Sequence record: NC_010324.1
Source of the DNA: Escherichia phage phiEco32
Length of the DNA stretch: 64,000 nucleotides
Reading direction: 5' to 3' (one strand)
Below, piece by piece: positions 30,483 to 36,640 of the stretch (position 1 is its first letter; each line of letters starts with the position of its first letter). The notes beneath the pieces were generated by a model. It ran no database searches and had not been told where the DNA came from. It was given only the letters and a program-made list of their open reading frames with translations. The position numbers were made by a program, and so were the translations under genes.

Positions 30483-30490
30483 TAAAAGAA

Positions 30491-30525
30491 AAGCCCCAAC
30501 CGAAAGGAAGGGGCTTTATTTGTTT
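30491..30525. terminator. bidirectional rho-independent terminator at the convergence of the plus and minus modules
   Basis: Stem gcccc/ggggc flanked by an A-run on one side and a T-run on the other, so it is followed by U-runs on both strands. Confidence 0.6.
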
Positions 30526-30841
30526 CTAAGTTTTAAAAACCATCAAATTCGTCATACATCCCAATTCTCTTCAGAAGTCTGGATGTTCATCTTCAAAGCA
30601 TCCTGAGATGCCTCCATAGAACCAATCCGATTTACTTCCAAGGATAACAACTTCTTCATTCATATACCCTCCTAGATTGTGTTTATAAAATTAGTAAGTT
30701 TCTCTTCACTTTCATCAAAATCTTTTCCAGCTGCTTCCATCTCCCAAGTATCGGCATTGTCAATAAAGCTCTGAGCTTCTAATAGATCGTGGATTAAGTC
30801 GAAGAGTTTATTTTTATCTGCTTGTGTGATCATGTCAGTTC

Positions 30842-31099
30842 CTAGATTAAATCGTAATACTGAATAATGTCAGAGAGTTTGAACTCTCGAATCTCATCTT
30901 TCTCTATATCTATCGCTGTCATAATCCAACAAGGTTTGCCACCGTTATGAAAACGGGAGCTAGCAACGGAGGTTCGGAGTGGAATAACGGACCGGTCAGC
31001 AACCTCGCCTCTCCAATTGCGATAGCGAAAGCGAAGCACTTGTTGCGTAGATTTTTGATCATCACTCATTTCCTTTTTTGAATTGTTTTCTTGCATCAT
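30842..31099 (-). CDS. hypothetical protein
   Basis: ORF track; true start may be the internal Met (about 31069). Confidence 0.4.
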   Translation of the reverse strand: MMQENNSKKEMSDDQKSTQQVLRFRYRNWRGEVADRSVIPLRTSVASSRFHNGGKPCWIMTAIDIEKDEIREFKLSDIIQYYDLI

Positions 31100-31466
31100 T
31101 TTCCATCTTAGTTTTTAGTTTATGACAAGGGTCTTTACACAGAACCTGAAAACCTTCTTTCTCACACAGAGCACGAGAGATGATTTCGTCCCAAGTTGCT
31201 TCATGATCAAGAGGAACTATAGGATCTATGTGGTCAATAGCCATATCCTTTACAGGGTGGTCAGAACCACACATGGCACACTTAAAGTGCATTGCCAGTC
31301 TGCCTGTCTTTGGATTAATCTTCTGCTCTGTCTTGGCGTCTGCTAGTGCATCGAACATGGGCTTCCACTTTCTAGTCAGAGAACGAATCCCTGACTTGAT
31401 GAAAGAGTTATAACGAGCTTCAGTCCACTGATTACTGCATCTTGTTTTATTAGCCTTCATTTGCAT
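31062..31466 (-). CDS. HNH endonuclease (zinc-finger type)
   Basis: Motif CAMCGSDHPVKDMAIDHIDPIVPL...LCKDPCHKLK; track ORF extends to 31586 but the likely start is the Met at 31466 or 31460. Confidence 0.6.
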   Translation of the reverse strand: MQMKANKTRCSNQWTEARYNSFIKSGIRSLTRKWKPMFDALADAKTEQKINPKTGRLAMHFKCAMCGSDHPVKDMAIDHIDPIVPLDHEATWDEIISRALCEKEGFQVLCKDPCHKLKTKMENDARKQFKKGNE

Positions 31467-31902
31467 ACTCTCCGTGAAGCTTCTGTCTTTCTTCTCTAAG
31501 AGCTTCTGCGGCAGACTCCAGTGAGTCAAAAACTCCCAGTGAGTACCTCCTTTTATTAGCAGAAATTCTTGCTCTCCATTTACCATTAGGCTCTTGGGTT
31601 ATTCCTTTATATCCGGAAGTGTTATTGTTGTTAATTTTTCTATTGTAGGCATTTTCTAAAGGTGTTACTAGCCTGAGATTATCCCGTCTATTGTTTTGTC
31701 TATCGCAATCTATGTGATCTACAATCTTTCCAGAAATATCCAAACCTTCCATTAGAAAAACCAATCTATGCAACAGGTACTTCTTCCTGTCGATAAAAGC
31801 AAAAAGATACCCATCTCGGTCTACCTTAACTCTAAGTCCAGTAAATTCTCCTGTACTTGGGTCATACTCAAAAGAGCATCTAGTCTTCTCAGACTTCGCC
31901 AT
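31450..31902 (-). CDS. HNH homing endonuclease with AP2 DNA-binding domain
   Basis: GYLFAFIDRKKYLLHRLV...VDHIDCDRQNNRRDNLRLVTPLEN plus C-terminal GYKGITQEPNGKWRARISANKRRYSLGVFDSLESAAEA. Confidence 0.7.
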   Translation of the reverse strand: MAKSEKTRCSFEYDPSTGEFTGLRVKVDRDGYLFAFIDRKKYLLHRLVFLMEGLDISGKIVDHIDCDRQNNRRDNLRLVTPLENAYNRKINNNNTSGYKGITQEPNGKWRARISANKRRYSLGVFDSLESAAEALREERQKLHGEYANEG

Positions 31903-32081
31903 AATCAGCTTCTTCCCAAACTCGTTTGTTTACACGATGACTCACTTTACCCTCACGAGGAATACGACCAGTTCGCTGATCAAACAGTTGATGTTTAATC
32001 TTTTGGTCTTTACGAGATTCACGATTGGAGGAGTTTTCATCATATGAACGATAATCAAATTTACCCATTATAATATCCTTA

Positions 32082-32900
32082 TTACCAAGATTTATCTAAC
32101 CATGTCCAGTCGAACAGGTCTTCCGGAGTCTGACCAACAAAGAGAAGCCGAGCATTCTCAAGCATCTTCTCTTCATCTTCAGTATCGAACTTCTTATAAT
32201 ATTCCATTCGTACTATATGATACATGGTCCACTTGTCTGTAACACCAGCCAACAACTTAGCTGCTGCTTTCTTCCCTATTCCTTGACGTCGAAGCTGAAG
32301 CTTACCTCCCCACATAACTTCTTTACGTTCTCCACATCCGGGGATATTATCTGTACCATCTCCAACCAGCATCTGATAGAAGAAATTTTGCCATGAAACT
32401 AAATCAGACACGTAGTGAGGAGGAACCTCTTTCTGTCTTTCTCCACAAGCCCAACGATAATGCCATCCGGGAGTTATCAACAAATCTTTGTCTCTAGTAC
32501 AGATGATAGTATTCTTATCTCTGCGTTGCCTTTCGGCTAGTGCATCATCAGCCTCTCTCCCAAATACGTCTATGTATTCATATTTACCTTTAATGTAATC
32601 ACCAACATTTTGCCAGTGAAAAGGTCTTTCTCCGGGAGGTCTATTTGCTTTGTAGTCTTGCTGTTTAGCAACATCAAAACGGAAGTTACCACCTTCGCTG
32701 AAGTAGAACACAACCTTGCTACAACCTGATCGAGCTATGATTGTATCAATCTTATACTGAAGTCGTTCAATCATGAAATTGTAATCAACTGGAACACGTC
32801 CTGTGTCAAGGAAGGGATGCTCCTGAGTAAGAGCACCCACTTCATACCGAAGAACGTCAGCGTCCACTATAGCAACTTCAGGGAGCTTAACTTCTTCCAT
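32082..32900 (-). CDS. 5'-3' exonuclease / flap endonuclease
   Basis: GREADDALAE...ICTRDKDL and H3TH-like LVGDGTDNIPG; start probably an internal Met near 32900 (track start 32924). Confidence 0.75.
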   Translation of the reverse strand: MEEVKLPEVAIVDADVLRYEVGALTQEHPFLDTGRVPVDYNFMIERLQYKIDTIIARSGCSKVVFYFSEGGNFRFDVAKQQDYKANRPPGERPFHWQNVGDYIKGKYEYIDVFGREADDALAERQRRDKNTIICTRDKDLLITPGWHYRWACGERQKEVPPHYVSDLVSWQNFFYQMLVGDGTDNIPGCGERKEVMWGGKLQLRRQGIGKKAAAKLLAGVTDKWTMYHIVRMEYYKKFDTEDEEKMLENARLLFVGQTPEDLFDWTWLDKSW

Positions 32901-33786: not shown

Positions 33787-35272
<1,486 letters not shown>

Positions 35273-36631: not shown

Positions 36632-36640
36632 TATACATTA
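36632..36640 (-). promoter_or_regulatory. TAATGTATA motif (minus orientation) upstream of the SSB gene
   Basis: Plus-strand tatacatta; ~60 nt upstream of the start at 36572; part of a near-palindrome with a plus-oriented TTATGTATA at 36622-36630. Confidence 0.4.

Follow-up and report, generated by a model that had tools for sequence, protein, structure and literature searches.

A free-standing HNH-AP2 endonuclease gene, probably gained by the phiEco32 lineage, is nested in the 5′ end of a core zinc-finger HNH gene

Introduction

Escherichia phage phiEco32 carries, side by side on the minus strand, two genes whose products bear signatures of HNH nucleases, and the locus raises the question whether both are mobile homing-endonuclease genes or whether one of them belongs to the regular gene content of the phage. 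The window analyzed here is the whole stretch of 64,000 nucleotides (nt) from sequence record NC_010324.1. A first, sequence-only reading of this stretch had assigned an HNH plus AP2 endonuclease to 31450..31902 and a zinc-finger-type HNH endonuclease to 31062..31466, and had assumed that both genes were mobile and marked recent insertions. Both genes are already annotated as HNH endonucleases; published work on phages SU10 and 7-11 contains nothing about the two genes, and we found no published description of their presence/absence pattern or of a nested insertion design. Here we argue that the HNH(HNN)-AP2 gene (hereafter HNH-AP2) is probably a free-standing homing gene that was gained by the phiEco32 lineage after its split from the closest sequenced relatives, and that its neighbor, 31062..31460 (hereafter the resident HNH gene), is a vertically inherited core zinc-finger HNH nuclease gene of the Kuravirus group.

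Results

Identity and domain structure of the HNH-AP2 protein

Both open reading frames (ORFs) were present in the ORF list of the window, on the minus strand and at the positions given by the sequence-only reading. The assignment of 31450..31902 as an HNH plus AP2 endonuclease was borne out by Pfam, PHROG, Protein Data Bank (PDB) and Foldseek searches. The protein matched Pfam HNH_3 over the curated cut-off (E = 9.6e-15) as well as PHROG 99 ‘HNH endonuclease’ (E = 7e-54), while the PDB sequence search returned the AP2/ERF domain of TEM1 (7ET4, E = 3.5e-5) and the endonuclease I-HmuI (1U3E, E = 7e-4). An AlphaFold2 model with a mean predicted local distance difference test score (pLDDT) of 90.6, in which residues 1–6 were disordered (pLDDT <50), gave I-HmuI as the best Foldseek match (E = 4.5e-4, probability 1.00); plant AP2 domains (AtERF1, TEM1) were superposed with a root-mean-square deviation of 1.5–1.8 Å over 53–56 residues (probability 1.00). 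A C-terminal AP2 domain was thus recognized by PDB sequence match and model superposition, with a Pfam score below the cut-off. The HNH_3 or I-HmuI-type catalytic domain retains an intact Asp-His … Asn … Asn arrangement, and the protein keeps every column that is invariant in 48 homologues (D62, H63, I64, N71, N75, L76, R77, N84, N87, G100, G123). Relative to three orthologues, the ratio of nonsynonymous to synonymous substitution rates (dN/dS) amounted to 0.06–0.13, with dS saturated, and the gene probably encodes a maintained, active enzyme. It is free-standing, being a separate ORF with its own stop codon, after which the neighbor gene restarts at its own ATG. A search for group I or group II introns and other RNA families yielded no Rfam match even at the permissive threshold of E ≤ 1, indicating that the gene is not intron-borne. 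Paralogues of either nuclease protein were not found within the 64-kb window.

Distribution of the HNH-AP2 gene among related phages

We compared the locus with a collection of 50,697 phage records, among the returned entries of which the phiEco32 genome itself did not appear. The 4-kb neighborhood shared 95–98% identity with Kuravirus phages, among them YF01, MN03 and SU10 (97.8% at the DNA level for YF01); the best relatives covered 89% of this query in two pieces, and their span was about 437–440 nt shorter. A junction probe of 181 nt across the empty YF01 site matched 97 phage records, and in 59 of the 60 matches listed the empty junction was spanned in one piece, the sole break among these being in TH34. 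Consistently, tblastn with the HNH-AP2 protein against the same collection gave a single match above 60% identity, again TH34 (74%); the remainder were below 60%, and the matches listed after TH34 shared 37–46% identity and belonged to HNH endonuclease genes of unrelated phages (T5-like, Felix-O1-like and others). Among 5.8 billion proteins searched, the annotated ‘HNH endonuclease’ of phiEco32 was matched at 100% identity, and only three further close relatives were detected, namely that of TH34 and two metagenomic ones (73% and 66%), and nothing closer than 38% identity was found among the viral contigs of IMG/VR. In all three cases, i.e., TH34, a phage from the Logan metagenome set (L007) and an ENA contig (L010), the homologue (66–74% identical protein) occupies the identical site, with the small upstream gene on one side and the zinc-finger HNH gene on the other, and displays the same junction design.

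The HNH-AP2 gene thus occurs sporadically, at one fixed site and with sharp junctions. The phiEco32-specific cassette (Table 1) is flanked by sequence that is evenly diverged by about 2–3% right up to the junctions in the alignments with YF01 and EK5. We found no extended co-conversion tract beside it, as mismatches to both phages were evenly spread except for an unrelated patch at 31101..31119. A megablast search for the donor of the endonuclease DNA against the 50,697 records gave only junction matches of 37–38 nt. The gene is an old, functionally maintained and sporadically occurring element, as expected of a homing-endonuclease gene.

Nested architecture of the insertion

In empty-site phages, the upstream gene of 59/63 amino acids (aa) and the zinc-finger HNH gene share 14 nt at the start of the latter, which leaves no space between the two genes. 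The phiEco32 endonuclease starts at the very ATG (31902) that opens the zinc-finger HNH gene in the empty-site phages. The first ten endonuclease codons (copy A) also contain the final codons of the 59-aa gene upstream, including its stop; their first 21 nt are identical to YF01, the ten residues correspond to the N-terminus of the YF01 resident protein, and the fold of the endonuclease family begins only after this leader, at FEYDP. The endonuclease gene is therefore placed in frame within the first ten codons of a core gene, using its start codon, its leader and its 14-nt overlap.

At the other junction, the 3′ end of the endonuclease gene carries a second, degenerate copy of these codons (copy B) together with GGAGAG and an ATG, and the core gene keeps a complete reading frame. 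Copy B overlaps the last endonuclease codons (HGEYANEG) and the stop at 31450..31452 in another frame, and TH34, L007 and L010 share this arrangement in the form HGEY(A/S)NEG* over M(K/R)A(E/N/K)KTRCSN. The GGAGAG motif lies inside the HGE codons of the endonuclease, is kept as GGAGA(G/A) in all four carrier lineages and likely serves as the ribosome-binding site of the new start. As a net outcome, the upstream gene keeps its C-terminus, the endonuclease inherits a start region and the resident gene gains a new one. Because a putative ribosome-binding site, the start and the 5′ codons have been rebuilt, no gene of this tightly overlapping operon is broken.

Table 1. Features of the phiEco32 locus, with positions in the window
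Feature	Position	Strand	Remarks
HNH(HNN)-AP2 endonuclease gene, 150 aa	31450..31902	-	I-HmuI-like catalytic domain, then AP2 DNA-binding domain
phiEco32-specific cassette, 453 nt	31429..31881		Replaces 14 nt (CGCTGTAGTGGAAT) of the empty-site allele in YF01, EK5 and SU10-type relatives
Copy A, first 10 endonuclease codons (MAKSEKTRCS)	31873..31902	-	Formerly the 5′ end of the resident HNH gene, with its start codon
Copy B, rebuilt resident 5′ end (ATG AAG GCT AAT AAA ACA AGA TGC AGT = MKANKTRCS)	31434..31460	-	Degenerate duplicate of copy A
GGAGAG, likely ribosome-binding site of the resident gene's new start	31468..31473	-	7 nt upstream of ATG 31460
Empty-allele sequence at the 5′ end of the core HNH gene in YF01 or SU10			...GAGAAGACTCGCTGTAGTGGAATGTGGACTGAAGC...
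Resident zinc-finger HNH gene, 132 aa (134 aa from ATG 31466)	31062..31460	-	Core middle gene of Kuravirus-like phages
Upstream core gene, 59 aa (PHROG 10643)	31889..32068	-	Last 14 nt overlap endonuclease start; protein identical to that of YF01
Bidirectional terminator hairpin	30490..30517		Folding -17.7 kcal/mol, z = -3.0; between plus-strand late and minus-strand middle modules

Empty alleles and codon 11

Recombination of copy A with copy B in phiEco32 would leave ACT AGA TGC AGT AAT CAG TGG, while the empty allele of Kuravirus reads ACT CGC TGT AGT GGA ATG TGG. The sequence found thus differs from the predicted recombinant, and deletion does not account for the empty allele of these close relatives. 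As the listed close relatives include one carrier, it is simpler to assume that the phiEco32 lineage gained the gene.

Codon 11 encodes asparagine (AAT) in all four carrier genomes and glycine in most empty alleles, which suggests a role of this residue in self-protection. As a strict marker of carrier genomes, Asn-11 had to be rejected, because empty alleles with Asn-11 exist. Furthermore, empty alleles with otherwise conserved surroundings show at least four synonymous forms of the Arg-Cys-Ser codons at the insertion point (31873–31881 and equivalents), including CGC TGT AGT, AGA TGC TCT, AGA TGT TCA and mixed forms such as that of EcM-vB1. These synonymous variants may represent conversion scars or target variants.

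The resident zinc-finger HNH gene

The ORF of the resident gene was listed as 31062..31586, and the sequence-only reading had started it at ATG 31466. As ATG 31460 is present in all four endonuclease-carrying lineages and ATG 31466 is not, the resident gene probably extends over 31062..31460 and encodes 132 aa; the earlier identification was upheld, while its start was not. The protein matched PHROG 3106 ‘HNH endonuclease’ with E = 7e-40, and Pfam HNH_5 and HNH at sub-threshold level only. In 36 homologues, C61, C64, C108 and H113 were invariant, and D76, H77 and C112 were conserved in at least 90%; this C-x2-C … DH … C-x3-C-H signature identifies it as a zinc-finger HNH protein. A PDB sequence search gave nothing at E ≤ 1.

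The sporadic distribution of homing genes was not observed here. DNA of the resident gene was found in 86 records, 85 of which contained most of the gene, and the protein occurred at an identity of at least 60% in 97 related records; its position is unchanged in Kuravirus, Suseptimavirus (SU7) and metagenomic relatives. In YF01, where it spans 31946..32347, the gene is listed as entry 20 among the 63 core proteins common to all 32 Kuravirus-like genomes analyzed (PMC9965538, Table S4), and the upstream 59-aa gene is entry 21 of the same list (PMC9965538). The dN/dS values of 0.04–0.18 indicate purifying selection, and the divergence of the gene tracks that of the genome. More distant homologues (26–50% identity) are found in Vibrio, Pseudomonas, Aeromonas, Salinivibrio and Klebsiella phages, mostly with genomes of about 50 kb. 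The universal conservation without insertion signature that had been proposed as the test of the mobility claim was thus found for the resident gene and not for HNH-AP2: mobility is supported for the latter by absence from the nearest relatives and sharp junctions, while the former is a core gene at a fixed position.

Some records label the resident gene ‘terminase small subunit’ merely owing to its HNH domain, a label that the authors of the YF01 study reject (PMC9965538). In YF01, the terminase genes are located at 1.5–3.6 kb and the small terminase was assigned to gp3 (PMC9965538). We likewise rejected an identity as terminase-associated HNH or small terminase, as the gene is not adjacent to the terminase and portal genes. 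The supplement of the YF01 paper reportedly includes a figure on direct terminal repeat sequences in Kuravirus-like phages, which would argue against cos-type packaging. The resident gene stands at the end of the minus-strand middle-gene operon, after genes for a 5′–3′ exonuclease and a deoxynucleoside monophosphate (dNMP) kinase; by analogy with other lytic phages, its product may have a part in the breakdown, recombination or processing of DNA and not in mobility.

Several peculiarities of the resident gene were noted in individual genomes. At its 3′ end, phiEco32 exhibits nine specific substitutions within 19 nt (31101–31119; HKLKTKMEND vs HKIKTKEEND). The cluster, which was seen in comparison with YF01, EK5, XT18 and EcM-vB1, lies immediately upstream of the next gene, which starts at 31099; the variant is shared by one metagenomic protein (P0122) and resembles a small recombination patch. 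In L007 (2943–3890), the resident HNH protein comprises 315 aa owing to a C-terminal extension of about 185 aa with the motif YGG..VCEEW..LDRI..NCRWAT and weak Pfam matches only, and this extension may be a second endonuclease-like module fused at the 3′ end. In O18-011 (LC553735.1, 10422–12391), the resident gene is convergent to the large terminase gene at a distance of 26 nt, and the small genes and the end of the late module that usually follow it are missing, reflecting a rearrangement or an assembly problem.

Surroundings of the locus

The sequence-only reading had placed the two genes next to a bidirectional terminator, which is approximately correct: three small ORFs separate the hairpin from the HNH genes. 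A consensus promoter/terminator scan did not report this terminator because the hairpin loop exceeds the length that the scan allows, and folding confirmed the hairpin. The corresponding position in SU7 carries annotated terminators on both strands. On the minus strand, the closest gp36-type promoter motifs, for which the consensus was taken from the literature (PMC8948821), lie upstream at 34877..34885 and 36632..36640.

Around the terminator, a 33-nt match within 30489–30525 was 100% identical to intergenic or terminator sequence of T4-like Klebsiella, Enterobacter, Citrobacter and Cronobacter phages of about 178 kb, and 41 nt at 30533–30573 showed a 95% match to a ‘hypothetical protein’ gene of Klebsiella phages of about 165 kb. 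Matches to the terminator region were obtained in roughly 270 records; such short exact sharing is odd between unrelated phage families. XT18 (1478–1843 of its locus) carries an additional annotated HNH endonuclease gene adjoining the bidirectional terminator, which phiEco32 lacks. The 85-aa product of 30842–31099, downstream of the resident HNH gene, belongs to PHROG 3715 and gave a weak WYL match (E = 3e-4, just under the cut-off); the annotation of EcM-vB1 joins it to the HNH gene in a single ORF of 621 nt. A gene of about 510 nt for a Dam-type DNA adenine methylase is found between the exonuclease gene and the small upstream gene in EK5, DE5, EcM-vB1 and two metagenomic relatives. It is absent from phiEco32, in which the corresponding site lies between 32068 and 32082, and constitutes a second presence/absence polymorphism about 200 nt from the endonuclease.

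Discussion

A homing gene beside a core gene

A free-standing homing gene gained by the phiEco32 lineage next to a vertically inherited core nuclease gene is, in our judgement, the likely explanation of the locus. Cleavage and homing by the HNH-AP2 protein are inferred by analogy from I-HmuI and the seg and mob genes of T4. In a mixed infection, the enzyme would use its AP2 domain to bind the 5′ end of the core HNH gene in the empty-site allele and would nick or cut there, and recombinational repair from the endonuclease-carrying genome would then copy the cassette in. In phiEco32, the co-converted tract would have been very short, comprising no more than 9 nt on the upstream side and, on the downstream side, the 32 nt of copy B plus the two codons that follow. 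The duplicated target of the carrier genome would perhaps be protected by substitutions such as Asn at codon 11.

Several observations weigh against this explanation. The score of the HNH-AP2 protein against Pfam AP2 (E = 1.7e-6, 28.7 bits) remains under the curated cut-off of 33.3 bits, and although the model of the resident HNH protein reached a pLDDT of 95, its top Foldseek matches, the nicking enzyme Gme HNH and Cap5 HNH, were not significant (best E = 0.23). The GC content of the cassette (0.39) does not stand out from that of most neighbor genes (0.39–0.42), and its GC content at third codon positions is ordinary as well; composition therefore gives no evidence for a foreign origin. The closest known copy is only 74% identical, so that ‘recent’ would have to be understood as parsimony within Kuravirus and not as a dated event. 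Finally, TH34-like metagenomic phages commonly have an empty allele in which codon 11 encodes Asn (MAKAEKTRCSNQW; CSNQW), and this allele could have arisen by loss or could represent a resistant target.

The last point bears on the assumption that HNH-AP2 was ancestral to the group and was lost nearly everywhere, with phiEco32, TH34 and two metagenomic lineages as survivors. This would be in line with the identical site and architecture shared by the four lineages, with the resemblance of the CSNQW allele of TH34-like phages to a product of copy A/B recombination, and with the finding that the HNH-AP2 copies are as diverged as the host genomes or more (phiEco32–TH34 dS saturated vs 1.2 for the neighbor gene). 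However, phiEco32 is the sole carrier within Kuravirus proper among the listed close relatives, to which it is 95–98% identical, and their empty allele differs from any deletion product at seven of the nine nt of the Arg-Cys-Ser codons. Ancestral presence would require many independent precise losses, whereas an old element cycling among lineages through homing explains the same data, and we consider survival from an ancestral insertion rather unlikely.

Another explanation would be that HNH-AP2 is no longer, or not only, a homing enzyme and is kept for a phage function, such as the exclusion of co-infecting relatives or AP2-based regulation. The strong purifying selection across four lineages fits such a function, as does the putative expression from the core middle operon with the start signals of a core gene, and T-even homing enzymes are known to cause marker exclusion (PMC2993671). 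Yet the catalytic residues are intact and the distribution is extremely sporadic, both of which are marks of an active selfish element, and one would expect a wider distribution of a gene that is useful. Moreover, exclusion is no alternative to homing, because both are outcomes of the same cleavage. A phage function in place of, or beside, homing thus appears quite improbable to us. The assumption that both genes are newly inserted homing-endonuclease genes, with the zinc-finger HNH as a second selfish element, is very improbable and largely refuted: although the protein carries an HNH nuclease signature, the annotation ‘phage-associated homing endonuclease’ is given to some distant homologues from Vibrio and Pseudomonas phages and other HNH genes come and go nearby, as in XT18, the gene holds the same position in 97 related records, in Suseptimavirus and in metagenomic relatives, is core in 32 of 32 genomes, evolves at a dN/dS of 0.04–0.18 with a divergence that follows the genome, and displays no visible junction signature.

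Returning to the homing cassette, one may speculate that it is a design adapted to invade operons without intergenic space. In-frame nesting, takeover of the start, a spare start for the displaced gene and protection by the exchange of Gly for Asn at codon 11 would be its elements; in this case, naturally occurring empty alleles with Asn-11 would be resistant targets, and repeated conversion would have left its scars in the patchwork of synonymous Arg-Cys-Ser codons. We offer this as a tentative idea that may well prove wrong.

Implications

For the annotation of this phage group, our findings correct the underlying logic, in that one ‘HNH endonuclease’ is to be regarded as a dispensable selfish insert and the other as a core gene that is mislabelled as small terminase in some records. 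The insert would offer a safe place for deletion or cargo swap in the engineering of phiEco32-type phages. Since a carrier phage is available together with dozens of empty-site relatives (97% identical) and several natural target variants, the locus constitutes a compact natural system for testing AP2-type homing, and it exemplifies how a homing gene can enter a tightly overlapping operon without breaking genes. General knowledge of homing endonucleases is unchanged by these findings; only the in-frame nesting with a duplicated, re-engineered gene start and the possible target-immunity variant go beyond the routine.

Comparison with known systems

HNH-AP2 genes are a recognized class of free-standing homing genes and have been tabulated for T4-related phages (PMC2993671, Table 5). 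In its catalytic half, the phiEco32 protein is matched best, in structure and in sequence, by I-HmuI of Bacillus phage SPO1 (PDB 1U3E), with which it shares a His-Asn-Asn variant of the HNH motif lacking zinc-binding cysteines and a separate C-terminal DNA-binding module. I-HmuI differs in that it is a nicking enzyme encoded inside a group I intron and equipped with another DNA-binding module, whereas the phiEco32 gene is free-standing and carries AP2. The same pair of domains is present in the free-standing HNH-AP2 or HNN-AP2 genes of RB49, RB43, RB16 and JSE, in the T5 heg genes and in those of the Xanthomonas phages Xp10, OP1 and Xop411, all of which are likewise sporadic and strain-specific (PMC2993671, PMC2248197). 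Such genes are usually intergenic and several are degenerating, in contrast to the gene of phiEco32, which is intact, lies in frame within the first ten codons of a core gene and carries a replacement start region for it. The seg and mob genes of T4 resemble it in the proposed course of events, i.e., a cut in the empty allele of a conserved neighbor, repair from the carrier and co-conversion of the flanks; however, seg enzymes belong to the GIY-YIG class and mob enzymes are HNH proteins without AP2, and homing has been demonstrated experimentally for some seg and mob genes, while for the phiEco32 gene it is proposed.

The contrast between the two neighbors also has a parallel, as Xanthomonas phages possess dispersed HNN-AP2 genes as well as single-copy CX2C HNH genes in a fixed context (PMC2248197). 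The resident HNH protein is comparable to single-copy CX2C zinc-finger HNH proteins such as those of Xanthomonas phage group IV, gp13 of the lactococcal phage bIL170 and the Gme HNH and HK97 gp74-like proteins. In common with these, it is small, has two cysteine pairs flanking Asp-His and is encoded by a single-copy gene in the same context in all relatives. It differs from the CX2C and HK97 gp74-like proteins in the location of its gene away from the terminase genes and in a glutamine that takes the place of the usual asparagine before the last cysteine pair.

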